From positions 1-64,000 of the IMG/VR virus record IMGVR_UViG_3300028591_000020: DNA of 64,000 nt. One strand, given 5' to 3'. The notes below the pieces were generated by a model. That model saw nothing but the letters and a program-made list of their open reading frames with translations. It was not told where the DNA came from and ran no database searches. The DNA is from a virus (Duplodnaviria > Caudoviricetes). This document shows, in pieces, positions 7,211 to 62,403 of this stretch. Within the stretch, counting starts at the first letter, position 1. The number at the start of each line of letters is the position of its first letter. The position numbers were made by a program, and so were the translations under genes.

Positions 7211-7247
7211 ACAATAAGAGAGAAATAAGGATAGTCAGAAGTGTATG

Positions 7248-7434
7248 CTGAACAGGGCGAACAGCGAACCCGTTGTACCGGTTGTTGTTGTTCTGCGGAT
7301 TGACACCACCAGAGTTGAAGTTCAAGTTCCGAGCATTGACAGCCGAGTTGAACGATGCAGACCAGTAGTTGCCGTTCGAGCCGCGATTGTTCCAAGACGA
7401 GCCGTTGCCGTTGCCAGAGCAAGCGAAGAAAAGC
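7248..7434 (-). repeat. DGR template region (TR), 187 bp
   Basis: AAC-rich copy of target 3' end; 16 mismatches to VR1 by hand alignment, 15 at TR adenines. Confidence 0.95.
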
Positions 7435-7599
7435 TTTCGGCCACAACCTTGCACGATAACACTAAGGGGTTGCACAAGGCAAGACCAAAGTGTATCTTTG
7501 ATTTTTCCCATCACCGCAAGCAGTGGTAGGACGTGTGGCCTGTGAATATCGTTCTGAACCATCCTGATTGTTATTAAAAATGTTATTAGTCTCGTATTG

Positions 7600-8160
7600 T
7601 TAGAATATAGCAGAAACCTGTCTTCGCAAGTCGCGTAGAATATCGTAGGCCTCCCGTGGTGATATGTCCTCGATTGGCAGTGAAACGATATGACTGATGA
7701 TGTCAGATATACGCATGATTCTCGGAGCCTGCTCAGCTGTCTCACGATCTTCGCGCTTCTGCTTCTTGCTCTCCATCAATGGCAGCGCGTTTTTCCAATC
7801 CTCCTTCATCTTATTGAGGTTTTCAAACGTCACTTCACCAATGTTCTCAGGAAGTGCAATCTTCACGTCAATCTGGGTGTCGCTGATGGGCTGAAACTCG
7901 ATATTCCCATTGCTTGGAAGATACTTGCCGATAGACGATGCGGGAAAACCAACGAAAGCGTCAATATATCCGTCTTTCAACTTCTTTGCCAACACCTTCA
8001 AAGGCTTCTCTACTGCTTCACCAAAAGGAAATGCAGACATCAGCCACGCGCTCCAATCATGAGCGCGATACCAGTCACCTTCCTTTATCAAGTGAATCAC
8101 ACTCCACTGGCTTGATTCCTCGCGCTTTGTTTCAATGCTTATTATTTCTGCTATTGTCAT
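7600..8160 (-). CDS. DGR accessory protein, MutS domain-I-like (MSL type)
   Basis: IHLIKEGDWYRAHDWSAWL resembles the MutS mismatch-binding motif; lies between target and TR. Confidence 0.65.
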   Translation of the reverse strand: MTIAEIISIETKREESSQWSVIHLIKEGDWYRAHDWSAWLMSAFPFGEAVEKPLKVLAKKLKDGYIDAFVGFPASSIGKYLPSNGNIEFQPISDTQIDVKIALPENIGEVTFENLNKMKEDWKNALPLMESKKQKREDRETAEQAPRIMRISDIISHIVSLPIEDISPREAYDILRDLRRQVSAIF

Positions 8161-8201
8161 CTTTACAATTTTTTTTCTTATTAGTTCTTACCATTCCAAT
8201 G

Positions 8202-8250
8202 CGGAGTGAGCCTTGGGGCCGCTTGTGGAGCGGCCTTGTGGCCCACTCCG
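8202..8250 (-). promoter_or_regulatory. Bipartite hairpin downstream of VR1
   Basis: minus strand CGGAGTGGGCC-ACAA-GGCCGCT-CCACA-AGCGGCC-CCAA-GGCTCACTCCG. Confidence 0.8.
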
Positions 8251-8289
8251 AATGTTATGGTTTTGTTACGTTCTTTTTGTGGAACGATA

Positions 8290-9408
8290 TTACTGAACAG
8301 GGCGAACAGCGAACCCGTAGCACCGGTAGTTGTTGTTCAACGGATTGACACCACCAGAGTAGAAGCCCAAGTCCCGAGCATTGACAGCCGAGTTGAACGA
8401 TGCAGACCAGTAGCCGCCGCTCGAGCCGCGACTGTACCAAGACGAGCCGTAGCCGTAGCCAGAGCAAGCGAAGAAAAGCAGATTGCCGTTATTCTTCGAC
8501 TTGAGATAGATACCTACAACACCGTTAACGGTGACGAGCTTGTTAGTCGTGCTGGCATCTATGACGGTAGTACCGTCAGCCTGTACGAAGTCACAGTTGT
8601 CAAACAACTCCTGGAACTCAGCCGTTGTCGGCATACGCCAAGGACCACCGAGGTTAGCACGGGCAGCGTCCTGAGAAGGTGCCATGCTGGCAGTCAGCTT
8701 ACAGCCAGGAGTCTGGCCGTAGATAGAATCGGGCTTGTAGCCATTCTCTGCTTCGTTCTTTGAGTTGTCCCATGTGCCAAAGTCGTAGTCGAAGCTCGAG
8801 TTGTCTTTGGGATTATGGCCGTCAGTATTACCCCATGAGAAGAATGTTTTCTCGTACTGGAATGCGCTGGCAGCGAATTTGTCAGGCTGCGTAAGGTCGA
8901 TGTCTGCGTCAGCCCACTTCAAGCCGCTGGGCAGACCCATATCTACGACGTGGGCAGTAGGTGTCTGACTCTGTTCAAGGCCCATGATGCTTACCATGTT
9001 CCAGTTCGTGCCGTCGTATTGGAACTGCACGATGGTACGAGCCTTGATGACTCCGGGCTGGATGGCAGCACCATACACAAGGATTGGCTTTGCGCCTGTA
9101 TTGTTCACGTTCAATGTAGCACCAGGTACTTCATTGGCAGTGGTAAAGAACACGCTAACCTTGCCATTCTTCTTGAGGGCAAAGTTGGAGATGGCAACTG
9201 TCTTGGCTTGTGTGGTGGCAGGAGTAGAGCATGTGCCATACCCGTTGCCGGAACACGCCATGTCCTGAATCAACTGCTGGGCTGGGTACTGCTTTACAGG
9301 AGTACCATCGGGATTGCAAATCATCACAATCTGGTCAGCAGTAGGAGCACCTTGGGTAAGCCCAGAAACAAGTGCTTTAATAGAATTGGCTGTTGAAATT
9401 CCGTCCAT
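8290..9408 (-). CDS. DGR target: tail-fibre/adhesin with C-terminal C-type-lectin-like variable domain
   Basis: N-terminal fibre-like segment; VDMGLPSGLKWA...WRMPTTAEFQEL; VR at C-terminus; at distal end of tail operon. Confidence 0.85.
   Translation of the reverse strand: MDGISTANSIKALVSGLTQGAPTADQIVMICNPDGTPVKQYPAQQLIQDMACSGNGYGTCSTPATTQAKTVAISNFALKKNGKVSVFFTTANEVPGATLNVNNTGAKPILVYGAAIQPGVIKARTIVQFQYDGTNWNMVSIMGLEQSQTPTAHVVDMGLPSGLKWADADIDLTQPDKFAASAFQYEKTFFSWGNTDGHNPKDNSSFDYDFGTWDNSKNEAENGYKPDSIYGQTPGCKLTASMAPSQDAARANLGGPWRMPTTAEFQELFDNCDFVQADGTTVIDASTTNKLVTVNGVVGIYLKSKNNGNLLFFACSGYGYGSSWYSRGSSGGYWSASFNSAVNARDLGFYSGGVNPLNNNYRCYGFAVRPVQ
8293..8479 (-). repeat. DGR variable region VR1
   Basis: colinear with TR at offset 1045; substitutions at TR adenines (e.g. 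AAC to TAC, AGC, GGC, GAC). Confidence 0.95.
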
Positions 9409-47891: not shown

Positions 47892-48089
47892 ATGAAGAAA
47901 TTCCTGCAAATCTCGAGAACTATCTTGAGTCTGAGTATTATTACTCTGATTAGTATTGCCATCTGTGCAGTTGTATCGCTGCTTGTCCTGTACGTTTTCG
48001 GCATCAACGATGATACTATCAGATGGTGTGCCAGCATCATGCTTTTCGGCACCATCCTCGTTGCTCTTCTTTTGGGAGCATTCGATTAA
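47892..48089 (+). CDS. small two-TM membrane protein
   Basis: MKKFLQ start after hairpin and A-rich leader; two hydrophobic helices. Confidence 0.65.
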   Translation: MKKFLQISRTILSLSIITLISIAICAVVSLLVLYVFGINDDTIRWCASIMLFGTILVALLLGAFD

Positions 48090-48160
48090 CAAAGTCTCAT
48101 TGATTTTTGTGGCAAAAAGCTGCAAAAATCGCTCATGTTTCACCAAATATAATGAACGAT

Positions 48161-48439
48161 ATGGATAAGTTAAAGAAATTGCAGATGGTAGCCAAAGTTC
48201 TGAGAGATCACCACGGCTACAAAGGTAACAAAGAGTCAGACCATTCCATCAGGTTTAACTTCAAGTTTGACAAGAAGGGCAACATTTGTGGGCCGTACAT
48301 AGACATCTATAATGCCGAGAAGGGTGCAAATCTCTTCGTGTGGCCAGAGTTTATCGAGCTGTGTCATGGCTTGGGTCTGAGCCATTACATTACCTATGAC
48401 AAATATGACCTCAAAGAGGTGGTGCTACACATCTACTAA
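48161..48439 (+). CDS. hypothetical protein
   Basis: bounded by AGTCT-hairpin elements. Confidence 0.7.
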   Translation: MDKLKKLQMVAKVLRDHHGYKGNKESDHSIRFNFKFDKKGNICGPYIDIYNAEKGANLFVWPEFIELCHGLGLSHYITYDKYDLKEVVLHIY

Positions 48440-48490
48440 GTCTCACGGCTCCATCAGGAGCCACTATTATTCACCAAATAACGAACGAGT

Positions 48491-48754
48491 ATGAAACAGA
48501 GAGTAATCAAAACGACTGCAATCTTCCGTTGCATCGTAACATTCAAGGATGGTGCACACAAAATCATCCGCATGACCATTGACAAGGTAGCGCATTTCGT
48601 GTATCTTTTCAGACAGCAGGAGAGAAATATCTTCGTGGATGAAACATGTCTCTTCGAGATGTGCGAAAACGAGTGGTTATGTATGTCATCTGTAGCCGGT
48701 GCCAAATTCATCAATGACCGCACCGACCAGGAATTTCTCAGTATCAGTCTTTAA
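48491..48754 (+). CDS. hypothetical protein
   Basis: bounded by AGTCT-hairpin elements. Confidence 0.7.
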   Translation: MKQRVIKTTAIFRCIVTFKDGAHKIIRMTIDKVAHFVYLFRQQERNIFVDETCLFEMCENEWLCMSSVAGAKFINDRTDQEFLSISL

Positions 48755-48806
48755 AGGGTGGGTACATTTTGTACCCCTCCCACAACAAACCAATAATTAT
48801 TGAACG

Positions 48807-48974
48807 ATGGTAGTAAACAAGATTCTCCGCAACAAGTGCGGATTTTGGTATGTGGGCCGTCTTCTGACTGTTGATCCCGATGGTGTTCCCGTCTATCAGA
48901 GGTTGTCAGATGATTACGTCTACAAAGGATGGGCATTGAACTTTGCCCGTCGTATGTGTATCAAGCTATCGTAG
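48807..48974 (+). CDS. small hypothetical protein (55 aa)
   Basis: read by hand: MVVNKILRNKCGFWYVG...; bounded by elements. Confidence 0.65.
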   Translation: MVVNKILRNKCGFWYVGRLLTVDPDGVPVYQRLSDDYVYKGWALNFARRMCIKLS

Positions 48975-49047
48975 CCTTTTTGGCATGGGTTGGTTTTATT
49001 TCGTTCGTTCGCCTGCCTGTGCTGCTATTCACCAATACTATACGAAT

Positions 49048-49506
49048 ATGTTACCATCAGAATTTTATGACAGGACGCATATCAAGCTCTCCGGAGATGA
49101 ATATGCAGACGTAGAGAACATCTACAACAATGTGGAGATGCAAAAGGATGACTTCTGCCAGCATTGGGTTGAAGAGAAAGAAAATCCTCTGTTCAAGGAG
49201 TTGGCCAAAGCATTCTGCAAGCAGACGAAAGAGCTGTTGCAGACTCAGAGCGACCTCGGCACCATCGAGCACAAATACAAGAGCGAGATTGAGGCCATTA
49301 AAAAGGAGAATGAGCGCATCCTCTCTGACAAGGAAGAGGCTCACAAATCTCTGGGTCGTAAGATTATTGAGAATATCGACGACGAAGTACGTTTGCACGA
49401 TATTCTTGAGGAAGAGTTCACGATAGATTTCATCATCAAGGTCAAGCTGTATAATGACATGGAGCTTGAGCGTAGTGAGCGAGACTATCTAATCGGTAAG
49501 CTTTAG
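49048..49506 (+). CDS. hypothetical protein
   Basis: MLPSEFYDRT...YNN.EMQKDDFC; start after GAATATG leader. Confidence 0.7.
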   Translation: MLPSEFYDRTHIKLSGDEYADVENIYNNVEMQKDDFCQHWVEEKENPLFKELAKAFCKQTKELLQTQSDLGTIEHKYKSEIEAIKKENERILSDKEEAHKSLGRKIIENIDDEVRLHDILEEEFTIDFIIKVKLYNDMELERSERDYLIGKL

Positions 49507-49554
49507 TCTTTAGGAGCCTTGAACGGCTCCACTATTCACCAAATATGTAAGAAT

Positions 49555-49794
49555 ATGGAGAAACTATTGAGAAGTCAGCTTTATCTTGTCGGCTCTGCTG
49601 GCACGTTGGAGAATCTTTGTGCGTTCGCTAAGCAGCGTCTTTATTGGGCGCAGCTCGACACCTCTGAGAGTACACGCTACGAATCCAGGATGGGTAAGGT
49701 GTACGACGTGAGCAATCTCAACGGCCTCGTTCCTGACATGGTAATCATTCAGAGCAAGGTACGTTGTTCTCTTTTCAGGATCAAAGAGAAATAG
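49555..49794 (+). CDS. hypothetical protein
   Basis: start after hairpin-leader. Confidence 0.65.
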   Translation: MEKLLRSQLYLVGSAGTLENLCAFAKQRLYWAQLDTSESTRYESRMGKVYDVSNLNGLVPDMVIIQSKVRCSLFRIKEK

Positions 49795-49796
49795 CT

Positions 49797-49955
49797 ATGC
49801 CAAAGGGTAAAGTAAAGTGGCTCACGTTCACGGACAATCCCCGTTGGGGCAGATATTTCATCGGTGAGAGTGAGTCCAGACAGGAAGCCATCGACAAAGG
49901 TAAGGCAGCAAACAAAGGCAGATTCGTAGTTGAACGAAGAGTAAAGTTCAAGTAG
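49797..49955 (+). CDS. small hypothetical protein
   Basis: 52 aa; ends in TAG of a TAGTCT element. Confidence 0.6.
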   Translation: MPKGKVKWLTFTDNPRWGRYFIGESESRQEAIDKGKAANKGRFVVERRVKFK

Positions 49956-50008
49956 TCTTTTGCGGCTCTTGCATGGGCCGCACAATTAACCCTTTAAACT
50001 GAAAGAAT

Positions 50009-50896
50009 ATGGAAAGAAGAGAAAAAGTAAATGCCATCAAGAGTCTGGCAGTAAGTAGCGGACGGATGATTAGTATGGATCCGGAAAGCTGGGGCGAGCA
50101 TCGTCTGAACGCTTTGGAATCTGAGTTGCAGGAGTTTCTTGCGCAACTTCCCGAAGAGGTACGTGACGAGTACGAAGATAAGTACATCGGCAAATACAAA
50201 GAATGGCTCTATGCTATGAGCCGTTGTGTATCTCAGATGGTGACGGGTGCAGGTGGTTGGACGGCTGCTAAGCTACGACGCAAGCAGAAGAATGACCAGT
50301 ACGAACGTAATGCACGCGAACGTCTTGATAAGTGGGCCGAAAAGGTCATCAAACGTTGCAATCGCCAAGAACGCATGACTGGCTGGGCCGAAGTCGAACG
50401 TCTGCAAGAAAAGCTTGACAGCTTGACTGCAGCCCAGGAGATGATGAAAGCGGCCAACAGAATCATTCGCAACAAGAATCTTGCAGAGGTTGAAAAGGTT
50501 GACGAGTTGGTTGCCCTTGGTCATAGCGAACAGGATGCAATACACTTGATGGAGCCAGATTTCTGCGGACGTATCGGATATGCTGACTACGCATTGAGAA
50601 ACAATCTTGCCACCATAAAGGACACGGAAGCCAAAATCAAGCGTCATGCTGCAATGGCAGAGCGTGCGAGAGGTGGTGACGAGGTTCACGAATACAAGTG
50701 GGGAAAGCTTGTTGTTGCATTCGGTGACGAACGCTACCGCTTCATCTTCGATGGAAAGCCAGCCCCGAACGTCATCAGCCTCATGAAGAGCAATGCTTTC
50801 AAATGGAGTCCTTCAAACTCAGCGTGGCAGCGTCAGATTACCGTCAACGCAAAGTATGCCGTGAAGCGTATGATTGAACAGCTCAACAACATGTAG
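50009..50896 (+). CDS. DUF3560-like / polyvalent-protein-associated protein
   Basis: SQMVTGAGGW...; C-terminal FKWSPSNSAWQRQIT. Confidence 0.6.
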   Translation: MERREKVNAIKSLAVSSGRMISMDPESWGEHRLNALESELQEFLAQLPEEVRDEYEDKYIGKYKEWLYAMSRCVSQMVTGAGGWTAAKLRRKQKNDQYERNARERLDKWAEKVIKRCNRQERMTGWAEVERLQEKLDSLTAAQEMMKAANRIIRNKNLAEVEKVDELVALGHSEQDAIHLMEPDFCGRIGYADYALRNNLATIKDTEAKIKRHAAMAERARGGDEVHEYKWGKLVVAFGDERYRFIFDGKPAPNVISLMKSNAFKWSPSNSAWQRQITVNAKYAVKRMIEQLNNM

Positions 50897-50946
50897 CCTT
50901 TAGCCTGCCTTGCATGGTGGGCACCACAAACCAATACATTAGGAAT

Positions 50947-51144
50947 ATGCCACACATTATCATGCACAAAGGCGTAGAAATACGCCAGTACGGAACACAG
51001 CCGGGCGAGAGTGTTTATCCTCTCTGCTTTACCGACGATCTTGAGCAGCAGAACATGTGTAATAGTGACGGTAGAAACATCGTCAAGATGCACGATTCTC
51101 TTTGGGATGCTAAGGCTTATATTGACAAACACGTAAAATCATGA
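50947..51144 (+). CDS. small hypothetical protein
   Basis: start after hairpin-leader. Confidence 0.65.
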   Translation: MPHIIMHKGVEIRQYGTQPGESVYPLCFTDDLEQQNMCNSDGRNIVKMHDSLWDAKAYIDKHVKS

Positions 51145-51147
51145 GCC

Positions 51148-51381
51148 ATGGAGTACGAAAAAAATTGCACTCAGATAAACATCACAAAGTGGAATGCTCT
51201 GATGAAGGGAGCCAGGAAATGTAGCTATAAGAAGCTTGTTGCCAGAATCAAGAAAGAGATTCCCTCGCTCTATGAGTCGCTGTGCCTGAACTTCTACAAT
51301 CCGTGGGAAGGCGACTGCCAGCAGACAAAGACGCACTACATCTTGGTACACTCTGGCATAGAGTATTTTATCAGAAAGTAG
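51148..51381 (+). CDS. hypothetical protein
   Basis: FYNPW...THYILVHSGIEYF pattern. Confidence 0.7.
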   Translation: MEYEKNCTQINITKWNALMKGARKCSYKKLVARIKKEIPSLYESLCLNFYNPWEGDCQQTKTHYILVHSGIEYFIRK

Positions 51382-51439
51382 TCTGACACCATTTCGCTGA
51401 CACCAACGAAATGGTACTATAAACCAAACATTATGAATT

Positions 51440-51769
51440 ATGAAAGCATTATGTATCTCAACTTGTCATCTGATTGCTAACGGACACGGCTCTATCTTTG
51501 AGCCAGTACGCGAAATCAGCGGTAAGAAGTTCTATTGCAAGGGAGATTTCTCTATTGCAAAATCTTGCGAGAGGGCTTATGTGGTTCTTTGGAAGAATGT
51601 GATTGTTGGGGAGTTTGTCGGAGCGAACAAAGAGCTTGTTGACTTACTCCACTCCAAGACTGCACCTGACTCAAAGAAGGTCATGCAGAGTTACAACTAC
51701 AGGACCGCATTGGCTGATATTGAGGAAGCTCAGAAATGGGCAGAACGCTACAACTTCAAAATCTGCTAA
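51440..51769 (+). CDS. hypothetical protein
   Basis: bounded by elements. Confidence 0.7.
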   Translation: MKALCISTCHLIANGHGSIFEPVREISGKKFYCKGDFSIAKSCERAYVVLWKNVIVGEFVGANKELVDLLHSKTAPDSKKVMQSYNYRTALADIEEAQKWAERYNFKIC

Positions 51770-51827
51770 AGTCTCTGAATGTGGCTATGCTTTAGCCACA
51801 ACTATTAACCCCTAAACTTATAGGAAT

Positions 51828-52163
51828 ATGGAAACAAATGCAGTAGAAAAAGATGCTAAGCGCATCCACGAAGTGACAGGCCGACCAATGGCTGAGTGTG
51901 AAGAGCAGGCAAAGCAGATTGCCGAGTGTGTACGTGAAATGTGTGACCGCGTGGTGGAGTTCTTTTATCTCAAGAAGGATGGAACCACACGACAGGCTTT
52001 CGGTACGCTTCAGCAGGAAGTTGTCATTGCTCATGTGACAAGTCAGCCTTCCAAGGAACCAAACCCTGACCTCGTAACGTACTTTGATACTGAGGCTCAG
52101 GCATGGCGTTCCTTCAAGAAGGTTAACTTCAAGAGCTACGTAAAGCAGGGACAACAAGCATGA
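51828..52163 (+). CDS. DUF2693 / SH3-barrel (WYL-like) protein
   Basis: VEFFYLKKDGTTRQAFGTL...VTYFDTEAQAWRSFK. Confidence 0.8.
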   Translation: METNAVEKDAKRIHEVTGRPMAECEEQAKQIAECVREMCDRVVEFFYLKKDGTTRQAFGTLQQEVVIAHVTSQPSKEPNPDLVTYFDTEAQAWRSFKKVNFKSYVKQGQQA

Positions 52164-52297
52164 CGAATATCGCGAAATATGCTTGGTGTCTCTTCCTTGC
52201 AGCCCTGACGTTTGGTATCTGGACGCTCCCAATCTTAATCGTCTTGGTCCTCGTCAATCTCTATCTTATCAAAAAGCATCCCGAATGGTACAAATGA
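52160..52297 (+). CDS. small membrane peptide (45 aa)
   Basis: read by hand; ATGA overlap; long hydrophobic stretch. Confidence 0.6.
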   Translation: MTNIAKYAWCLFLAALTFGIWTLPILIVLVLVNLYLIKKHPEWYK

Positions 52298-52356
52298 AGT
52301 CTCAAGCCGTGCAAAGGACACGGCACACATTATTAACCCCTAAAATGTAGTGAATT

Positions 52357-53271
52357 ATGAAAAAAGAAAAGAACATTTGCGTAGAAGAAGTTGCCAAAGT
52401 TCCTGTTGTGAAGTACTACTTTTACAGGAAAGACACGAATGGCTATCTGAAAACGGATGGTGGGCTTGTTTATGTGTCAGTCACGGCTATCAGCATTGAC
52501 TTCAAGAAACAGCTCTTAGTAACGACGCTCACAGACAAGAGCGGCAAGGAGTATCTGAAAGAAGGTAAATTCTCTCTTTATGCAAGTCCAGAGGCGTACG
52601 AAGCTGACGATCCAATGAGAATGAACGTGTATCAGACGTGGGAACTTCTTAAGTTTGCCGATTGGGGCCGACTGACTGATTGCGCTGTTGGTATTGTTGA
52701 CGAGGAAGAAGGCAAGCAATCCTGTTATATCAAGGTATGGATATTCGAGGATGGTGGTGCAAAAGAAATTCCCGTTGTCATCAACTCCATTGCCTGCGAC
52801 ACGTACGAGAAATGGCACTTGACCGACGGCAACATTCCTGTGAAGATATGGGAAACCAGAGCTGACGCATACGCCTGCAACGAATATCAGATTACTGATA
52901 GTGACGGCGAGGTGTTCACTGAGGAAGGATTTCAGAAAAGACTTGTACCGACTCCTGCACAGTGGGTTGTCATTAAGCAGATGAAGGTGCTCTTCGATAA
53001 AGCAAAGGCATTAGGACTCCGCTTCATGTGGGACCGCGAATATGGCGGTAACCTCAAGGCTGTAAACTATGAGAATGTACACATCTTCGAGTACGACGCT
53101 CAAGCGTTTGAAGGTGGCGACCTCGTTCAGGTCAAGGACCTTGCGTTTGCAGATACCGGAATTGACTTCTTCGATTACTGTGGTGACGAGGGTGATAGAT
53201 ATAAGTTTGCCCTCAATCCAACAGCGCGTCAGAAAAAGGAATGGCTCAAAGCCACTCAAGGTAACGAGTAG
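52357..53271 (+). CDS. hypothetical protein
   Basis: 304-aa ORF bounded by elements. Confidence 0.75.
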   Translation: MKKEKNICVEEVAKVPVVKYYFYRKDTNGYLKTDGGLVYVSVTAISIDFKKQLLVTTLTDKSGKEYLKEGKFSLYASPEAYEADDPMRMNVYQTWELLKFADWGRLTDCAVGIVDEEEGKQSCYIKVWIFEDGGAKEIPVVINSIACDTYEKWHLTDGNIPVKIWETRADAYACNEYQITDSDGEVFTEEGFQKRLVPTPAQWVVIKQMKVLFDKAKALGLRFMWDREYGGNLKAVNYENVHIFEYDAQAFEGGDLVQVKDLAFADTGIDFFDYCGDEGDRYKFALNPTARQKKEWLKATQGNE

Positions 53272-53805
53272 TCTTTCTCCCTGCTTGCATGCAGGGAACA
53301 ACAAACCAAGTTTTGTTCGCTACGAGCAATCTCACGGCTCGCAGTTGCCATCAGTGGGTGACAGTAGGGAAAGACCTCCGTCTCATTCTCCACCACGTAT
53401 CAGACGTAAAAGCACGGGTGCGGTTTGTGACATGACAAAGTACACGTTGTGCGGCAGACGGGAGAAATTCAAGCACTTAGCATTTCGGTTCCTCTCACTC
53501 CTTAATAAAGAGAGCATGCGAAAGCCGTCGAAGCCACTTAGGGACGTAAAGGCAGTGGGGGTATGCAACCACCAAGTGAGTAACATCGGCTGATGAAGGA
53601 AAATAACAGGGCGTGCCGTGCGGCCATAGAGGCGGATAGTGCAGACCACACCTGCGCGAATGACAACCAAAGGCTACCGTTTAACGCTAACGCAAAAGCG
53701 CAAGCCATGGAACAACTATTCACGGAATTATCGTGTCTGAATTGGTAAAAGTCTTACAGGGAATGTGGACGCACATTCCCTACCAATAACCAACTACACA
53801 AGATT

Positions 53806-54324
53806 ATGGCAAAGTTAAACGTCTATTCATTTGCCGACTATAACTCTGTCCGTTTCCTCGCCCATCAGGTGAAGGATGGTAACGACAGCAGTATCAGTCG
53901 TGCAGCTCGTTACATGGCGCATCTTGTGTCGTGTATCGCTGACGAGCGATGTGTTATCATTCCTGTACCTGGTCGTACAGGTGTCGCTCTCTACACAAAG
54001 GTTCTTGCCGAACGTATCTCTGAGTTGACTGGTGTATGTGTCGTGGACTGCCTAAAGTGCAAGCCACACATGACTCAGTATCTCCGCAAGATACGCTATG
54101 GACTTGACAGCATGCGTCCGATGGATTTCTCCATCACTCAGGACGTTCCATCAGACGTTATCCCTATCCTCATAGATAACGTTCTCGACACAGGTACTAC
54201 CATCATGTCAGCCATGAAGGCATTGAACAGAACTCTCTACGTCGTTGTGCTTGGCAACACGCACAACTTCCTGCATTTCAATTATCCTATCAACCTCTAC
54301 GAACAGTCTCTTGCTCTCCAGTAA
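53806..54324 (+). CDS. phosphoribosyltransferase-like (ComF-type) protein
   Basis: VIIPVPG...; PRPP-loop-like LIDNVLDTGTT. Confidence 0.75.
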   Translation: MAKLNVYSFADYNSVRFLAHQVKDGNDSSISRAARYMAHLVSCIADERCVIIPVPGRTGVALYTKVLAERISELTGVCVVDCLKCKPHMTQYLRKIRYGLDSMRPMDFSITQDVPSDVIPILIDNVLDTGTTIMSAMKALNRTLYVVVLGNTHNFLHFNYPINLYEQSLALQ

Positions 54325-54362
54325 CATGGAGAGTGCTATTAACCCATAAAATTATCAAGAAT

Positions 54363-54689
54363 ATGACAAAGATTACCTACAATGAGCAAGAACTTCGCCT
54401 TGTGCAGTCTCGCTATCAGAACAACAATGCGCTCTACGTTGGACTCGTTGACAATGACGGAGAGTTTTATGCAGATGTGACGGTCAACATGCCCATCAGC
54501 AGCACTATGCCGACTGACTGCGCTTTCGTTGACACAAACAATCTCTCTTGGAAAATCATCGAAGTGCTGACTGATGCAGGTATTGTGACACCTATCCATC
54601 AGACGTGCAGAAGTGGTTTCTATCAGTATCATGCTTTCCGCTTTCAGAATCTCTGGGATATTGATGACATCACAGCAGCGATCAACTAA
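54363..54689 (+). CDS. DUF4313-like protein
   Basis: Y.NN.ALYV.L...GE.YADVTVN...AFVDTNN...SGFYQY. Confidence 0.75.
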   Translation: MTKITYNEQELRLVQSRYQNNNALYVGLVDNDGEFYADVTVNMPISSTMPTDCAFVDTNNLSWKIIEVLTDAGIVTPIHQTCRSGFYQYHAFRFQNLWDIDDITAAIN

Positions 54690-54891
54690 GTACGAAGCCG
54701 TCTGCGAGTCAGGAAATACGGATGCTGACACCATCATAAAGTTCCCTGACCGCGAATCGGCAGAAATGTTCTGTCAGATTTGGCGTGCCTCGCATCCTGG
54801 CACCCATGCTTGGGTACGAGAGACACAGCACCGCCACATGGAGCACAACACGCTTGGCCGTTCCGTAATGACGGTGGACCTCTACGATTAG
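54664..54891 (+). CDS. hypothetical protein
   Basis: ORF ending in TAGCCT element. Confidence 0.55.
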   Translation: MTSQQRSTKYEAVCESGNTDADTIIKFPDRESAEMFCQIWRASHPGTHAWVRETQHRHMEHNTLGRSVMTVDLYD

Positions 54892-54951
54892 CCTCAGTGT
54901 GCAGCGTGATTTTGTCACGCTGTTCCCAATAACCCCTAAATACATCAGAAT

Positions 54952-55488
54952 ATGAATGAATACAAACCAATCTTCGCCTGCTATGAAGAAATCAAGCAGC
55001 GTGAAATCAGAGAATTGAAGGATGCGGTACGAGCAGCGAGAGGGCAGTATGTTTTCCCGAAGGATAAACATCCGTATGTGATGTGCAACCTCGACTCTGG
55101 CCCGTGTGACCTACGTGTTGACAGCGTAGAGATACAAAACATTTCAGACGTAGATGTACTGGTCATCTTTGGTTACGACGAGCAGGCAGGGCAGGCAGTT
55201 GAAATCTCTCTTGAGGATATTGCTTACAGCCATATCTCGTTTATCACAGAGGCTATTCCCGTTCGCAAGTTCACACAATCTTCATTCTCTATCTCTCGCC
55301 TCAGTCGTGAAGACCTTGAACAAAAAGGATTTGATACGTCTGACGTGGATGACAAGACGATGGAAAAGCTGGCTTCTAAGCTGGGTGATGACTATTGCGA
55401 ACAACTCTTTTGGATTTCGCTCGAAATCATTGCCGAATCTATGGGCATTCCTCGCAGAGAGGACCACAAAGAGGATGATGACGAATAG
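54952..55488 (+). CDS. hypothetical protein
   Basis: F.ISRLSREDLEQKGFD.S.VDDKTMEKLASKLGDDYCEQLFW pattern. Confidence 0.75.
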   Translation: MNEYKPIFACYEEIKQREIRELKDAVRAARGQYVFPKDKHPYVMCNLDSGPCDLRVDSVEIQNISDVDVLVIFGYDEQAGQAVEISLEDIAYSHISFITEAIPVRKFTQSSFSISRLSREDLEQKGFDTSDVDDKTMEKLASKLGDDYCEQLFWISLEIIAESMGIPRREDHKEDDDE

Positions 55489-55490
55489 CT

Positions 55491-55700
55491 ATGGCCACCA
55501 TCCGCTTGCAGCTCATTAAGGGCTTCTTCTATCCGACGGATGCAGATAGTCGTAAGATTCTCGAAGAGAGTATGCGGCTTGACCGCATCCCACTTGAACG
55601 AATAGACGTGGTATCTCCCAAACTTGTGAAAGCTGGTCATGCTCTGGCTATCACAGGCTGGGACCCACCGCCTGTTCCCGTGCGCTTTTCGTCTCTTTAG
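55491..55700 (+). CDS. small hypothetical protein
   Basis: coupled ORF. Confidence 0.6.
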   Translation: MATIRLQLIKGFFYPTDADSRKILEESMRLDRIPLERIDVVSPKLVKAGHALAITGWDPPPVPVRFSSL

Positions 55701-55750
55701 CCGTAAGAAATTTACGGCACTACCTAACCCCTTAAAAGAAAGGATTGAAT

Positions 55751-56659
55751 ATGAGTCAAAACAATGTTTATCAGATGGTGACTGACCGCATCGTGGCACA
55801 GCTGGAGCAAGGGCTTGTTCCTTGGCATAAGCCGTGGACGGGCGTAGGTCTTGAAGATGGTGGAGCTATCAACTATGTCAGCCGAAAGCCTTACAGTATG
55901 CTGAATCAGATGCTTCTTGGACGCGAGGGAGAATATCTCACCTTCAAGCAGATCAAGGAGCGTGGAGGTAGTATCAAGAAGGGAGCGAAAGCTGGTGTCG
56001 TGGTATTCTTCACCACTACGACCTATACCAAGCGCGAGGAAGTGCAGGAAGATGGCTCTACCGAGACTGTCAACGTCGTAAAGGAACATCTTATGCCTGT
56101 GCTCAAGTACTACAACGTCTTTCATATTGACGATTGTGAGGGTATCGAGAGCAAGATTAAGGTTGAAGAGGATGCTGGACCGAAGATTTCTCCCATCGAG
56201 TCAGCCGAGAAGGTTCTGAACGGCTACGTCGAACGAGAGAAAGAACTGCAGTTCCGCAACAATATACCGACTGACCGGGCCTACTATTCTCCGACACTCG
56301 ACCTTATCTCTGTTCCTATGCTCTCTCAGTACGAGATTGCGGAAGAGTATTACTCGACCACGTTCCACGAAGCGATTCACTCTACCATGCCAGAGAATCG
56401 TTGCAACCGCAAATCTGAGCAGAAACTTGCTGCCTTTGGTAGTGAGGACTATTCTCGCGAGGAACTTGTGGCCGAGATTGGCTCTGCCATGCTCTGCAAC
56501 AATGTTGGCATCGACTGCGAGAAGGCTTTCAAGAACTCTGTAGCCTATATCCAGGGATGGCTTAAGAAGCTCAAGAACGACAATCGAATGATTGTGTGGG
56601 CTGCATCCCGTGCTGAGAAGGCTGCAAAGTACATTCTTGGTGAGCCTGACGCTGAGTAG
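55751..56659 (+). CDS. ardC: ArdC-like antirestriction ssDNA-binding protein with zincin (HExxH) domain
   Basis: VTDRIVAQLEQGLVPWHKPW, YSMLNQMLL, YLTFKQ, AYYSP, HEAIH, YSREELVAEIGS. Confidence 0.9.
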   Translation: MSQNNVYQMVTDRIVAQLEQGLVPWHKPWTGVGLEDGGAINYVSRKPYSMLNQMLLGREGEYLTFKQIKERGGSIKKGAKAGVVVFFTTTTYTKREEVQEDGSTETVNVVKEHLMPVLKYYNVFHIDDCEGIESKIKVEEDAGPKISPIESAEKVLNGYVEREKELQFRNNIPTDRAYYSPTLDLISVPMLSQYEIAEEYYSTTFHEAIHSTMPENRCNRKSEQKLAAFGSEDYSREELVAEIGSAMLCNNVGIDCEKAFKNSVAYIQGWLKKLKNDNRMIVWAASRAEKAAKYILGEPDAE

Positions 56660-56716
56660 TCTATCATTCCTGATGTGTAAGGCATCGGGAACTATAAACC
56701 AAACAATATCAAGAAT

Positions 56717-57415
56717 ATGGAAAGAACATTTTTACCCGTAAACTGTTGGGCAGCGGAAGATATTCCGTCCAACAAACTGATTGAGGGCAACCCCGAGAAC
56801 ATGAGTAATGCAGAATTGCTCTCTATCATCATTGGCACTGGCTCCGATAAGGAGAATAGTGTAGAACTTGCACGTCGCATCCTTCTAACCTGTGACAACA
56901 AGCTTTCAGAGCTGGCTAAGAAGTGCAACAACCCCAACAATCTCACCTACATGCGTGGCGTGGGCAAGCAGAAAACTGCTAAGATTATAGCAGCTCTCGA
57001 ACTTGGCAAGCGTCGCCAGCATGAGCAGGCCACCGAACGGCCTGAACTCAAAACGGCAGTACGAGTCTATAATATGATGGCTCCTATCATGCAGGATTTG
57101 GAAAAGGAAGAGTTTTGGGTGCTTCTCATGGGTCAGCACTTCAAGCTGATAAAGAAGTTCCGGCTGTCACAGGGTGGTATCTCTGAGGTGTCCGTGGATA
57201 TTCGCATCATCATGAAGGAAGCGGTTCTGAATAACGCCACCGTCTTGGCTGTCTGTCATAACCATCCCTCTGGCTCTCTGAATCCGAGCAAATGTGATGA
57301 CGATATAACATTCAGCCTCAAGAAAGCCTGTGATGTTATGCGCATCCATCTCAGCGATCATGTCATTATAACTGATGGCGCATACTACAGCTATCGCGAG
57401 CAAGGAAGAATCTGA
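56717..57415 (+). CDS. radC: RadC family JAB/MPN protein
   Basis: SNAELLSII, ALELGKR, EEFWV, HNHPSG, DHVII. Confidence 0.9.
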   Translation: MERTFLPVNCWAAEDIPSNKLIEGNPENMSNAELLSIIIGTGSDKENSVELARRILLTCDNKLSELAKKCNNPNNLTYMRGVGKQKTAKIIAALELGKRRQHEQATERPELKTAVRVYNMMAPIMQDLEKEEFWVLLMGQHFKLIKKFRLSQGGISEVSVDIRIIMKEAVLNNATVLAVCHNHPSGSLNPSKCDDDITFSLKKACDVMRIHLSDHVIITDGAYYSYREQGRI

Positions 57416-57435
57416 CCAACAAATGACCAACAATT

Positions 57436-57651
57436 ATGTTATACACCGACGTTCAAGCTCAGGAACTCGTAGGGCAGGTTCTCGAATCTCTCAACGAGGA
57501 TGGCCGTTATCCTCTCCATGAGGGAGATATGGGCTACTACAAGAATGCCAATGGAATCTGGACGGCTTGGGATAATTCTACAGGCGACTGCTGGGTAGAG
57601 GATTTCAAGACCCGAAAGGAGGCCATTGAATGGTTAGGAAATGTTAATTAG
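57436..57651 (+). CDS. hypothetical protein
   Basis: WTAWDNSTGDCWVEDF pattern. Confidence 0.7.
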   Translation: MLYTDVQAQELVGQVLESLNEDGRYPLHEGDMGYYKNANGIWTAWDNSTGDCWVEDFKTRKEAIEWLGNVN

Positions 57652-57688
57652 TCTTTTTATCCTGCATGACATTTGCCGTGCAGGATGC

Positions 57689-57814
57689 AACTCACACAGC
57701 AACTCACACACTGATTCACACAGTAATTCACACACTTAACACATTGTGTATCAAAGAGTTAATGCAAAACATCACACACCAATTCACACAGCGATTCACA
57801 CACTAACTCACACA
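57689..57814 (+). repeat. 2x4 array of 12-bp-period direct repeats (RAYTCACACA) around a central spacer
   Basis: copies at 57689, 57701, 57713, 57725 and 57769 (degenerate), 57781, 57793, 57805. Confidence 0.9.
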
Positions 57815-57974
57815 ATCGCGCGTGTGTATATAAAGGTACGTGCGCGTTTATTGTTATATAATAAATATATATTCTACCAGTATATATATACTTGTTCAAA
57901 AACGACTTTTTGTCTCTGATGTTAAAAATTCAGAAAACATCCTATATTATAAACCAAATTATTAATTTTGCAAT

Positions 57975-58949
57975 ATGAAAGAATTAAGAGGTCTCAGTTT
58001 AGACCAAAACAAGAAGTTCAAGTTCGCTATAGAATGCGGATATTTGGACGATTGGGAAACTGACCCACGAAAATGGAAACATACTTTCGTAGGTGCTTTC
58101 CTATGGAAATATCCCTCAAGGGTTAAAATCCTGAATATCCTCAAGGATATTATAGGCAACATACCTACGTGGGGTGACTTGAATGACGAGACATTACGCG
58201 ACCTCGTAGATGAACTGATAGAGCAGGGCCTTGCCACGTCATCCATCAGAACGATGTGTGCAGAGCTGAAAGTGGTACTCAATGAGAATGTGAAAAAAGT
58301 ACCATGCGACAGCTTCCAGAAGATATTGTCTGTGAAGGGGTCGGCAACAAAGCCAGTCTATCTGACGAGTAGCGAAATGGAACTCCTTCTTGCTTTCAAG
58401 CCTCGTACAGAGACGGAACACTACGTGCATCGTAACTTCTGCGTCTCTATGCTCACGGGCGCAAGGCTTGTAGATACATTGAAGCTAACCATCAGTAATT
58501 GTGACATTGAAACAAATATGCTGTCATACATTCCTCAGAAGACTCCTGGCATTGTCGTACACGTTCCCGTTGATGAACGGCACCACCTGCGAACGTTCCT
58601 TGCAGATATACCAAAGAACGACAGGTGCCTTGATACGTACAACGAGGTCATACGACGCATCTGTGAGCTTGTTGGCATTGACACGGTATGTAATGCCGTC
58701 AAGGCAGGAAAGGACGTGACAGCACCAAAGTATCAGCTTGTCAGCTCTCATACAGCACGTCGCTCCTTTGCGACGAATCTATATTTGGCTGGTGTGTCGC
58801 TCGAAGACATATCCATGATGATGGGCCACGGCAAGAATATCGAGACAACAAAACGGTATATCTGTGCAGAGCGTGCGCTGAATCCAAACGTCATGTCATA
58901 CTTCCAGCAGCCAGTCACCACTCCCTCTGAACTATCAGAGGTTGGTTAG
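57975..58949 (+). CDS. second tyrosine recombinase
   Basis: TGAR, QKT, HTARR, MGH, KRYI: complete R-K-H-R-H-Y set. Confidence 0.9.
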   Translation: MKELRGLSLDQNKKFKFAIECGYLDDWETDPRKWKHTFVGAFLWKYPSRVKILNILKDIIGNIPTWGDLNDETLRDLVDELIEQGLATSSIRTMCAELKVVLNENVKKVPCDSFQKILSVKGSATKPVYLTSSEMELLLAFKPRTETEHYVHRNFCVSMLTGARLVDTLKLTISNCDIETNMLSYIPQKTPGIVVHVPVDERHHLRTFLADIPKNDRCLDTYNEVIRRICELVGIDTVCNAVKAGKDVTAPKYQLVSSHTARRSFATNLYLAGVSLEDISMMMGHGKNIETTKRYICAERALNPNVMSYFQQPVTTPSELSEVG

Positions 58950-58951
58950 TC

Positions 58952-60184
58952 TCAAGGCAGGGTTTTCCCTGCCACAAAATCAACCACTCTTCTCACAGCA
59001 TTGTCTATCTTACGCTGGTCATGGGCGATATAACGTGCCGTAACGCGCTTACTCCAAGAATGCCCGAGACACTGGCCGATAGTCTGCTCACTGATGTCAA
59101 GGTCGTTTGCAGCTATTGATCCGAACGAGTAGCGTGCTGAATAGAGTGTGATGTCAGGACAGAGTGGTGCATACTCCATCTTTCGGAGCTTACCTACTTT
59201 GTCCTTTACCTTCCAGCTTGGACCAACCTTCTGCAGAGCTTCGTTGGCTTGCTTGGCGAACGAGTGATAGTCGCTCCTGCAGTCCATAAAACTAACGAGC
59301 CAGCCCTCTCTCGAAGGATAGCGGTCAATAATCTCCTGCGCCTCTGGCAGTACTGGCAGGGTGATGACACGAATCTTCGTCACACCTTCCTTATTCGTTT
59401 TCTTTCTGATAAACGAGATGTGGCCATCCTTGATGCTGTCTGCTTTGAGCGATAGCAGGTCAACGGGATTGATGCCTGCAAGGTAGAACGATAGGAAGAA
59501 GAAGTCAACGTATGGCCGTTGCCACGGCTCACAAGGATAATCTCTGAGTCGTCTCAGTTCCTCGACGGAAAGATTGTTGGGAACTGTCTCTTCCTCTCTG
59601 ATGTGATAGTCCAGGAAAGGATAGTTTGTGGTCATTCCCTTGCGTCTGGCCCAATTGAACACAGCACGGATATTCCTCAGTTCCTTTGCCACGCCATTTA
59701 TCTTCATGCCATGCTTGATGCAGTGGTCATAGAACGAGTCCATCCAGTCTTTTTCGATTGAAAAATCAGCGTTTCGATCGAACGATTCCACCTTCCTCGC
59801 TGTTATCCTATACAAAACAGCCGTTTGTTCCCTTTTTGTGGCGGCGAACGATTGGATAGCATCTGACAGGGCGAACGGCTTGGCTTTCTTCTGAATGCCG
59901 AAAACCTCATTCAAAATACGCTCCTTGAGTTCTTTGTTGCTCAGCCCTGCAATATCCCGTTCGAGACATAGCGAGGTTACAGAGGCGAAATATTTGCCCA
60001 ATAGGATAGTCTTACGCTTCCAATCTCTATCAGACTTTGGAAACGACATCTCAACCAGCTTATCACATGTAGTGATGCCAGTGTTCACGAAAAATCTGCC
60101 CTGCTTCGTACTGACGATGAAGTACACAGGGAAAGAGCCGTCTTTGTTCGCTCTTGTTGTGTTTACATAAGGATAAATCTTCAT
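58952..60184 (-). CDS. int: phage integrase (Bacteroidetes tyrosine recombinase with arm-binding N-terminus)
   Basis: N-terminal GSFPVYF arm-type domain; GINPVDL, RKKT, YSARYSF, LGHSW, TARYI; next to att core. Confidence 0.9.
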   Translation of the reverse strand: MKIYPYVNTTRANKDGSFPVYFIVSTKQGRFFVNTGITTCDKLVEMSFPKSDRDWKRKTILLGKYFASVTSLCLERDIAGLSNKELKERILNEVFGIQKKAKPFALSDAIQSFAATKREQTAVLYRITARKVESFDRNADFSIEKDWMDSFYDHCIKHGMKINGVAKELRNIRAVFNWARRKGMTTNYPFLDYHIREEETVPNNLSVEELRRLRDYPCEPWQRPYVDFFFLSFYLAGINPVDLLSLKADSIKDGHISFIRKKTNKEGVTKIRVITLPVLPEAQEIIDRYPSREGWLVSFMDCRSDYHSFAKQANEALQKVGPSWKVKDKVGKLRKMEYAPLCPDITLYSARYSFGSIAANDLDISEQTIGQCLGHSWSKRVTARYIAHDQRKIDNAVRRVVDFVAGKTLP

Positions 60185-60203
60185 ATTCTGAGTATTAACT
60201 GGT

Positions 60204-60224
60204 TTGCTACACTATTTGCTGCAC
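60204..60224 (+). repeat. integrase arm-type site (left)
   Basis: TTGCTACACTATTTGCTGCAC, 20/21 identical to 60435-60455. Confidence 0.75.
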
Positions 60225-60333
60225 CAAATTAACCCTCAAAAGCCTGCAAAAGCCGCGATTTCTCTTAATCGCATGGGGATTTTCCCCAACTCAGAATAAT
60301 ATTGTAAAACCCTAACTTGCTGATTATCAGCAT

Positions 60334-60377
60334 TGAGCGGAATACGGGACTCGAACCCGCGACCCTCGGCTTGGGAA
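60334..60377 (-). other. attP core = 3' half of tRNA-Gly(CCC)
   Basis: minus strand TTCCCAAGCCGAGGGTCGCGGGTTCGAGTCCCGTATTCCGCTCA: anticodon loop to acceptor end; 5' half absent. Confidence 0.85.
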
Positions 60378-60434
60378 AATTCTGAGCCAACTTGCAGAAC
60401 CTTTATTTATGGGGCTTCTGAGAATCGGTACAGA

Positions 60435-60455
60435 TTGCTACACTATTTGCTACAC
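60435..60455 (+). repeat. integrase arm-type site (right)
   Basis: TTGCTACACTATTTGCTACAC tandem. Confidence 0.75.
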
Positions 60456-60459
60456 TAAA

Positions 60460-60858: not shown

Positions 60859-61188
60859 CTACCTGATTAGTGATACCAATTTATTCATAACATCTTCACG
60901 CTGTTGATAGTTGGCTACGAGCTGTTTACATAGCTCTATCAACTCCGTGTTGGTGGCTACATCTACATTCCGTCGGTCTTTAGAGAGCATTGGGCCCTCA
61001 CCATGTGTCAATAACCATTCCGCAGATACTCCTTCACACTTGGAGAAAAGAAGTTCTACGTCAAATGTGTCACGTTTCAGCCATGCGCTGATGTTCTGAG
61101 CAGGAACGCCAATCATGTTGGCGAACTGAGCCTGATTGCCGTTTGTGTAGTGCAATATCAGACATTTGAGCATTTCACTTTTCTTCAT
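60859..61188 (-). CDS. CI-like HTH repressor (no peptidase domain)
   Basis: NQAQFANMIGVPAQNISAW HTH; SAEWLLTHGEGPM; divergent from Cro-like gene. Confidence 0.85.
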   Translation of the reverse strand: MKKSEMLKCLILHYTNGNQAQFANMIGVPAQNISAWLKRDTFDVELLFSKCEGVSAEWLLTHGEGPMLSKDRRNVDVATNTELIELCKQLVANYQQREDVMNKLVSLIR

Positions 61189-61563: not shown

Positions 61564-62403
61564 ATGCAAGAAGGATTGATTGATTTTGGCGACAGCCACC
61601 CTGCACAAACTCCTATTAGTAGAGTTTTTGCCTATAACGGCACTAACGTAACCTTTGCAAAGAAAGGTGGCACCGTCATGATCAATGCCACCCAAATGGC
61701 AAAGCCTTTTGGAAAGAGACCTGTAGATTGGCTACAGAACTCCCAAACCTCTGATTATCTCAGCGAATTATCCAAAGTGAGAAAAAGCACTTTGGCCGAT
61801 TTGGTGAGAGTTACGAAGGGCGGTAACAATCCTGGCACATGGATGCATGAAGACGTAGCCATTGAGTTTGCCCGTTGGCTCAGCCCAGCATTCGCTATCT
61901 GGTGCAATGACCGCATCAAGGAGCTAATGAAGTATGGCATTACCGCCACTGAGACCACGATTGATAGTATTATCGCAGACCCCGACAATGGTATTCGTCT
62001 GCTGACAGCTCTTAAGCAGGAGCGTGAGCAACGTCAGTTGGCAGAATCAAGAGCTGCCATGCTCGAAGAAGTAACCAAGGAGCAGGCACCAAAGGTAGCA
62101 TTCGCAGATGCAGTACTTAGCAGCCCGGACTCCATCCTTATCGGTGAACTGGCCAAGATTCTGTGTCAGCGAGGCTATCAGACTGGAGAAATTCGTCTCT
62201 ACGAGCAGTTGCGCAATGAAGGTTATCTTTGCTCAGCTGGCTCCGACAGAAACCTACCCATGCAGCGTTATCTCGAAATGGGCCTGTTTGAAGTTACCAA
62301 AGGAACACGTTCCGGCAACGGTGGCGTTATGCACGTCACACGTACTACTAAGGTAACACCAAAGGGCTGTCAGTATTTCATTGATAAATTCCTTGCACAA
62401 TGA
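61564..62403 (+). CDS. antirepressor (KilA-N plus ANT/KilAC C-terminal domain)
   Basis: MINATQMAKPFGKRPVDWL...GTWMHEDVAIEFARWLSP; PKVAFADAV...ILIGELAKIL...TKVTPKGCQYF. Confidence 0.9.
   Translation: MQEGLIDFGDSHPAQTPISRVFAYNGTNVTFAKKGGTVMINATQMAKPFGKRPVDWLQNSQTSDYLSELSKVRKSTLADLVRVTKGGNNPGTWMHEDVAIEFARWLSPAFAIWCNDRIKELMKYGITATETTIDSIIADPDNGIRLLTALKQEREQRQLAESRAAMLEEVTKEQAPKVAFADAVLSSPDSILIGELAKILCQRGYQTGEIRLYEQLRNEGYLCSAGSDRNLPMQRYLEMGLFEVTKGTRSGNGGVMHVTRTTKVTPKGCQYFIDKFLAQ

Follow-up and report, generated by a model that had tools for sequence, protein, structure and literature searches.

A 4 + 4 iteron cassette ahead of a small recombinase gene in a rumen Prevotella phage is probably an initiator-bound second origin or replication-control locus

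Which protein does an array of TCACACA repeats serve when it lies immediately ahead of a tyrosine recombinase gene: the recombinase itself, the integrase that is encoded convergently with it, or the replication machinery? The question is raised by positions 57689–57814 of a 64,000-bp stretch of DNA (the window), which comprises bases 1–64000 of the 75,595-bp IMG/VR record (G000) of a temperate rumen Prevotella phage; the G000 assembly closes as a circle because of a 127-bp terminal overlap. A first-pass annotation had treated the array as the property of the small recombinase and had offered three roles for it, namely an iteron origin bound by the superfamily 3 (SF3) helicase of the phage, a second attachment or resolution site, or an element in recombinase action on gene cassettes. 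The comparisons described here point to a different owner: the array is probably an origin-type iteron cassette that is bound by the replication initiator of the phage and that would act as a second origin or as a replication-control locus in the manner of oriR of phage SPP1.

The array is made of two blocks of four heptamers with a 12-bp period, and the inner copies of the two blocks are 44 bp apart, start to start (Table 1). The extended motif RAYTCACACA is exact in seven of the eight repeats (the eighth reads CATCACACA), and its eight occurrences in the window compare with 0.94 expected, a number that none of 100 shuffles reached. Several direct repeats with a fixed period, in excess of chance, are as expected for an iteron origin. 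The first-pass description of the repeat blocks, and of the palindrome, WATCARN4TTR match, CG patch and AT-rich tract that accompany them, was confirmed. Within the AT-rich tract, a candidate DNA-unwinding element, only one other 80-bp stretch of the 75.6-kb genome is less stable than positions 57849–57928, which lie about 4 standard deviations from the mean; the tract doubles as a promoter region, so this instability is supportive of an unwinding role and not decisive. The dyad between the last iteron and the AT-rich tract is single-copy in the genome and is kept in 12 of 13 array-bearing loci, in which a fixed gap of 2–3 bp separates it from the last iteron. Read as 10–11 bp arms around an 8–10 bp centre, it is symmetrical at only about 7 of 11 positions, a loose fit to a resolution site of the loxP, dif, cer or rfsF type, and it may be a structural element of an origin or a candidate core for the recombinase.

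In the whole of G000, TCACACA repeats cluster at only one place other than the array, inside an open reading frame (ORF) at 71353–72222, beyond the window. This in-gene cassette (71697–71802) shares with the array both the 12/44/12 geometry and the ATCAR-N4-TTR spacer motif: two repeats are followed by a 37-bp spacer (CTTAACGATGTGGAAATCAGCGAGTTAGC..), by two further repeats and then by two more, and the spacer is related to that of the intergenic array (CTTAAC..ATCAGCGAGTTAG). The in-gene cassette has an AT-rich flank of its own, and the AT tract of the intergenic cassette is the stronger one. The presence, within one replicon, of a second cassette of like build outside the initiator gene was found in G000 and likewise in G002, a 73-kb relative.

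The product of ORF 71353–72222 is a 289-aa protein whose PHROG matches are to the families 'replication initiation protein' and 'DnaD-like helicase loader'; searches of Pfam and NCBIfam gave no family match for it. In an AlphaFold2 model built on 12 homologues, residues 24–104 form a winged helix (helix 64–71, recognition helix 75–87, wing 91–104) with a predicted local distance difference test score (pLDDT) of 70–82, and the linker of residues 107–173, which is encoded by the iteron DNA, is disordered. A Foldseek search with this model returned exclusively winged-helix DNA binders, every match being weak (the best at E 0.004); two entries bear the titles 'initiator' and 'N-terminal domain of DNA binding protein', and the weak fold matches 4pt7 and 4pql (E about 0.01–0.02) are presumably N-domains of staphylococcal RepA. 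The protein is most likely an O/RepA_N/DnaD-like replication initiator whose gene holds the primary copy of the cassette. The match L006, in a metagenome-assembled genome (MAG), was set aside, being another initiator with other repeats. In phage lambda, ori lies inside gene O, and in RepA_N plasmids the origin lies inside repA, whose product has a winged-helix N-domain and a DnaD-like C-domain. The gene described here resembles both in having iterons in its linker-coding middle and in encoding a DNA-binding domain at the N-terminus and a DnaD-like part at the C-terminus, whereas those systems are not known to have a second external cassette.

The initiator covaries with the type of repeat. In G002, the initiator homologue (50% identical) carries 3 + 3 TGACACA repeats within its gene, and both cassettes upstream of the recombinase are also of the TGACACA type. 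Other initiator homologues have GGGCACA in the gene (G007, G009), and GGGCACA is found upstream of the recombinase in L003 and in nine loci from metagenomes. In an alignment of the N-domains, residue 76 (Trp76 in this phage) follows a conserved W-x-W-(T/S)-E motif at the start of the predicted recognition helix. This residue is Trp in three distinct proteins with TCACACA iterons, Arg in 19 with TGACACA or CGACACA iterons, and Lys in five with GGGCACA iterons, and thus tracks the repeat type in 27 of 27 distinct initiators from rumen and human-gut phages, in a scan in which one of the two patterns itself fixed the residues permitted at position 76. A first alignment adds five sequences similar to that of phage BS-TP2, with Lys, GGGCACA and 37% identity to this initiator. 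The Arg and Lys states each occur in clades of widely differing identity to this initiator (37–98% across clades). BS-TP2 is a cultured Bacteroides phage whose initiator homologue bears the annotation 'replication initiation O-like'; the first 50 kb of the 57.6-kb BS-TP2 genome were searched, and there a GGGCACA cassette occurs only inside the O-like gene and no SF3 helicase homologue was found. Because residue 76 covaries with the repeat type, and because BS-TP2 has the cassette without an SF3 homologue, the TCACACA heptamers are regarded as the putative binding sites of the initiator.

Several observations weigh against this assignment. The sequences in the covariation comparison are related, so that the 27 are not independent events. 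The initiator and a recombinase-adjacent cassette occur in one record only in G000 and G002, which leaves same-genome matching at n = 2, and the GGGCACA recombinase loci are not paired with their initiators; a search of the flanks of the metagenome recombinase loci found no initiator within 10 kb. L001, a prophage in a Prevotella MAG, has TCACACA cassettes and no detectable initiator; it is probably truncated, because the whole early region and the second att copy are absent. In addition, SF3 helicase identity and recombinase identity likewise go with the iteron type, as linkage predicts.

A two-cassette layout of this kind has a precedent. In SPP1, gp38 binds both oriL, which lies within gene 38, and oriR, about 13 kb distant, each of which has direct repeats together with an AT-rich unwinding element, and gp38 bound at oriR has been proposed to cause fork stalling and a switch to concatemer synthesis (PMC6316719). 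The phage described here resembles SPP1 in having one cassette in the initiator gene and a second, intergenic cassette of like build, the cassette-to-cassette distance being 13.4–14 kb; the likeness drawn between the initiator and gp38 is one of layout. It differs in host phylum, in being temperate, in the 7-bp cores, which recur every 12 bp and form two blocks, one on each side of a bend-site-like spacer, and in that the second cassette of this clade always precedes a recombinase gene. On this reading, the locus is of a known kind, the oriL/oriR two-cassette phage origin, here placed beside a widespread small recombinase.

In the proposed mechanism, the N-terminal winged helix of the initiator would bind the heptamers of both cassettes, and the initiator would assemble on the cassette together with a host bending protein at the spacer; the assembled complex would then either open the AT tract or, as a tight complex, control the passage of forks. 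The intergenic copy is a likely second origin or tightly bound control locus because a GC dyad and a strongly AT-rich tract follow it. Because the cassette lies where the rightward early operon ends, early transcription probably runs through it.

The recombinase next to the array has the properties that had been read from its sequence in the first-pass annotation, namely 324 residues with a complete catalytic set, no obvious arm-binding N-terminus, and a stop codon 2 bp from that of the integrase (its TAG ends at 58949, and the integrase stop occupies 58952–58954). It matches PF00589 with an E value of 3.4e-11 (43.6 bits against a cut-off of 27.1), and R164, K189, H259, R262, H285 and Y295 are invariant in 19 homologues. 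Compared with the integrase (22% identity over 115 residues), its residue 77 aligns onto residue 151, and its alignment to XerC starts at residue 57; with about 74 N-terminal residues fewer, there is no room for an arm-binding domain, and an N-terminus of the lambda/IntDOT arm-binding type is lacking. Its scores against XerC (44.3 bits; cut-off 335) and XerD (42.2 bits; cut-off 330) are far below the NCBIfam equivalog level, and a PDB sequence search gave marginal integrase matches only. It is a simple Xer/Cre-like enzyme, and the best guess for its role is the resolution of circular multimers of the replicating phage, since one site per genome and the neighbours (the origin cassette here, a ParA-like gene in phage BI-TP1) would fit multimer resolution. 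No site for it was identified, a search for candidate site pairs in the genome having found no second copy of any. The long inverted and direct repeats of the genome were rejected as its targets, as they are the template repeat (TR) and two variable repeats (VRs) of a diversity-generating retroelement.

The array and the recombinase have different distributions. Homologues of the recombinase number 443 at E ≤ 1e-10 in the protein collection, with 493 stretches in species genomes, and arrays lie upstream of about 14 distinct recombinase loci with 58–100% identity (82–100% for TCACACA, 67–79% for GGGCACA and 58% for TGACACA). The proximal cassette, although non-coding, has both its 12/44/12 spacing and its ATCAR-N4-TTR motif conserved in 13 aligned array-bearing loci. 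The usual layout consists of two 2 + 2 cassettes about 100 bp apart, the distal one inverted and the proximal one direct, and its variants are the single 4 + 4 cassette of the window and the two direct cassettes of L002; a by-eye reading of an inverted cassette centre in L001 and L003 was rejected, the multiple alignment giving one orientation in all loci. Orthologues that lack an array include L008 and L077 (56% identity), L515/L516 (59%), L010 and L079 (38–40%) and 24 further Bacteroidales prophage loci, about 30 in all with those of the LoVEphage type included, and the array-less virus records G004 and G005 contain no such cassette anywhere. The convergent integrase persists in most of the close relatives, and the recombinase–integrase pair was found in about 20 loci, both with arrays and without them. 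Because orthologues without an array keep this pair, the array is a clade-specific insertion between the last early gene and the recombinase and not the general substrate of the enzyme, which, as judged from these comparisons, is conserved as the convergent partner of the integrase both in this clade and in BI-TP1, independent of the array; the first-pass attribution of the array to the recombinase is accordingly not supported. L002 lacks the dyad despite having cassettes and recombinase, and no array-less orthologue has it alongside, so that its distribution follows the cassette rather than the enzyme. Viral contigs were scanned for paired TCACACA and for GGGCACAA-N1-3-CGCGCG, which gave mostly chance matches and no new recombinase loci among the matches listed, and a DNA search of the phage collection with positions 57400–60300 as query gave 0 matches.

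A cassette bound by the initiator need not be an origin, and could regulate the recombinase promoter, limit replication by handcuffing with the in-gene origin, or only arrest forks. Handcuffing control of replication is known from incA of P1 and incC of F. In 13 of 13 array-bearing loci the recombinase promoter has the cassette directly upstream, the in-gene cassette, with its own AT-rich flank, is the sole one in the searched part of BS-TP2, so that one origin suffices for this initiator family, and fork stalling is the role proposed for oriR of SPP1; even so, a purely non-origin function is judged rather unlikely, because the conserved GC dyad and the second least stable tract look like an unwinding element, and because the two inverted cassettes of the relatives resemble a bidirectional origin more than an operator. 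Alternatively, the region might be a resolution site of the recombinase itself, with the dyad as crossover core and the cassette and bend site as accessory DNA or topological filter. In Xer recombination at cer and psi, accessory sequences impose such a filter, and rfsF, the site of F ResD, lies next to oriV1; with F ResD/rfsF, P1 Cre/loxP and Xer the phage shares a small armless recombinase beside replication or partition functions, although here the enzyme is paired with an integrase at attP and not with a plasmid backbone. The arms and centre of the dyad, its fixed abutment on the last iteron, its single copy and its place just upstream of the recombinase gene would suit a core, and the orthologue in BI-TP1 comes after a ParA/MinD-like ATPase, such as plasmid resolvases typically have as a neighbour. 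Against these points stand the absence of the dyad in L002 and beside all array-less orthologues, the poor symmetry of its arms, and the assignment of the heptamers to the initiator, which together make a resolution site unlikely. A mixed arrangement, in which the initiator-bound cassette and the bend site form the accessory arm of a resolution site with the dyad as core, and the initiator serves as resolvase cofactor, is also unlikely; if it were true, it would, together with the second origin, allow integrating phages also to persist or amplify as resolved circular plasmids.

The identity of the binder has its own alternative in phage P4, whose ori and crr are two repeat clusters bound by the alpha primase-helicase. 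The phage described here likewise has two separated clusters of one short repeat and a D5/alpha-like SF3 helicase, whose C-terminal winged helix could bind the iterons as alpha binds ori and crr. Helicase identity is 96–100% in records with TCACACA (G008, G001), 84% with GGGCACA (G003), 72% with TGACACA (G002) and 46–54% in records without cassettes, and L001 retains helicase and cassettes without an initiator. This correlation is, however, what lineage linkage would give, whereas residue 76 of the initiator predicts the iteron type across clades of 37–98% identity and BS-TP2, in the part searched, has GGGCACA iterons without an SF3 homologue. In difference from P4, the sequence evidence thus favours a separate winged-helix initiator as the putative binder, and binding by the helicase is very unlikely; of the first-pass proposal, the iteron origin is retained and the SF3 helicase as its binder is not. 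Still more remote is an integron-like activity, in which the recombinase would move hairpin-bounded early-gene cassettes and the array would be an attI-like platform. The recombinase is always the last gene of a hairpin-punctuated early array, and the gene blocks that differ between the window and L001 end near hairpin modules, but its match to the IntI model TIGR02249 (31.6 bits against a cut-off of 265) covers only residues 254–298, the last 45, the modules share a 25–35 bp leader that, with the RecT-like protein encoded by the phage, makes homologous exchange enough, and gene order is collinear between relatives. Action of the recombinase on the early-gene cassettes, as suggested in the first-pass annotation, therefore finds hardly any credence.

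The remaining first-pass suggestion, a second attachment site, is not supported, given the position of attP. L001 is collinear with 19.2–60.4 kb of the window and ends at 60377, where the host contig continues as a complete tRNA-Gly(CCC) gene; the window has the 3′ 44 nt of this tRNA, flanked by arm repeats, an IHF-like (integration host factor-like) site and a tandem GGNTTTTG motif. Region 60202–60457 is the attP of the integrase, and the TCACACA array was rejected as attP. The integrase has the SAM_5 domain as its only Pfam match. IntDOT-type integrases lack the first catalytic arginine, and the integrase may lack it as well; its segment LAGINPVD aligns with LTGARLVD of the recombinase (Arg-I). 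The attP arm repeats vary between related phages (GTCAGCAAA, GTGCACCA, GTACAGCA), which suggests that they co-evolve with the integrase N-domain. The tandem GGNTTTTG motif of the P arm recurs just 5′ of the proximal cassette in L001 (about 5728–5757), L060, L064 and L069–L071, and the attP and cassette copies change together between phages; the motif may be recognized by a host factor or by an excisionase-like one. Just past attP lie the genes of a weakly matched CI-repressor-like helix-turn-helix protein (60859–61188, minus strand) and a KilA-N/ANT antirepressor (61564–62403).

Table 1. Features of the cassette, the convergent recombinase and integrase genes, attP and the SF3 helicase gene in the window
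Feature	Position	Strand	Remarks
D5/P4-alpha-like SF3 helicase, 507 aa	40879–42402	-	rival candidate iteron binder
End module of preceding early gene	57649–57686	+	TAGTCT and hairpin ATCCTGCA..TGCAGGAT
Iteron block 1, 4x TCACACA, 12-bp period	57689–57734	+	starts 57692, 57704, 57716, 57728
Cassette spacer, 37 bp	57735–57771	+	homologous to spacer of in-gene cassette
Palindrome ACACATTGTGT	57739–57749		inside 37-bp spacer
IHF-consensus-like TATCAAAGAGTTA	57749–57761		fits WATCARN4TTR; inside 37-bp spacer
Iteron block 2, 4x TCACACA, 12-bp period	57772–57814	+	starts 57772, 57784, 57796, 57808
GC/AT/GC dyad CGCGCGTGTGTATATAAAGGTACGTGCGCG, 30 bp	57817–57846	.	alternating CG/TG patch; abuts last iteron
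AT-rich tract, 20% G+C	57849–57953	.	candidate DNA-unwinding element; also holds recombinase promoter region
Start module before recombinase ORF	57912–57941	+	GTCTCT and hairpin GATGTT..AACATC
TAATTTTG, match to Bacteroidota -7 consensus	57963–57970	+	4 nt before ATG; kept in relatives
Small tyrosine recombinase, 324 aa	57975–58949	+	core-binding and catalytic domains, complete R-K-H-R-H-Y set
Integrase, 410 aa	58952–60184	-	N-terminal extension and SAM_5 domain; convergent with recombinase
attP of integrase	60202–60457	-	arm repeats, IHF-like site, tRNA core
attP arm repeats GTGYAGCAAA, 12-bp period	60202–60225 and 60434–60457
attP tandem GGNTTTTG motif (ATCGCGGCTTTTGCAGGCTTTTGAGGG)	60233–60259		P arm
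attP IHF-like site	60313–60325
attP core	60334–60377		3′ 44 nt of tRNA-Gly(CCC)

The last early genes 5′ of the cassette encode an ArdC-like antirestriction/zincin protein (55745–56659) and a RadC-like JAB protein (56717–57415), and a 71-aa ORF (57436–57651; phrog_37721, function unannotated) is the final early gene ahead of the cassette. The early genes (48000–57950, recombinase included) appear to be punctuated by a module composed of a stop/AGTCT, a hairpin and a leader, of which the copies at 57649 and 57912 were read directly; the module resembles the promoter–stem-loop cassettes of T4-type phages. A compensatory change distinguishes the hairpin ahead of the recombinase ATG (GATGTT..AACATC) from its counterpart in relatives (GCTGTT..AACAGC), and the palindrome ahead of the ATG was rejected as a site of the recombinase as it matches the early-gene module. 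The -7 promoter consensus of Bacteroidota is TAnnTTTG.

Temperate Bacteroides phages of the LoVEphage type (BI-TP1, PV4-TP1) resemble the phage described here in genome size (about 71–75 kb) and in the possession of a diversity-generating retroelement. In this phage, the retroelement occupies 5738–9408 of the window and 74717–75514 of G000: the TR (7248–7434, minus strand) is accompanied by VR1 (8293–8479) at the 3′ end of ORF 8290–9408 and by VR2 (about 75309–75493, plus strand), likewise 3′-terminal, in a C-lectin-like ORF; ORF 5738–7210 is the candidate reverse transcriptase, an Avd-like ORF lies at 7600–8160, and the differences between TR and VRs are nearly all at TR adenines. Gp60 of the cultured phage BI-TP1 is 39% identical to the small recombinase, has SAM-like and catalytic domains only, and comes next after a ParA/MinD-like ATPase; its convergent partner gp61 is an integrase with Arm-DNA-bind_5, a domain that gp60 lacks. 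In the LoVEphage-type phages, the place before the small recombinase is taken by the ParA/MinD-like gene, with no iteron cassette there, and no initiator homologue was found. 'Two integrase proteins' were noted in the description of LoVEphage and were not analysed (PMC8525569).

LoVEphage is among the most prevalent temperate phages of the human gut (PMC12629997). For the rumen Prevotella phages related to it, which have no mapped origin in the literature found, the present comparisons provide a testable origin map with two cassettes and one initiator, and they dissociate the repeats from the widespread second 'integrase' of phages of the LoVEphage type. They also predict a rule in which one residue at the start of the recognition helix (Trp, Arg or Lys) is matched to the iteron's first three bases (TCA, YGA or GGG, respectively), and such a recognition rule would help to predict replicon compatibility among Bacteroidales phages.

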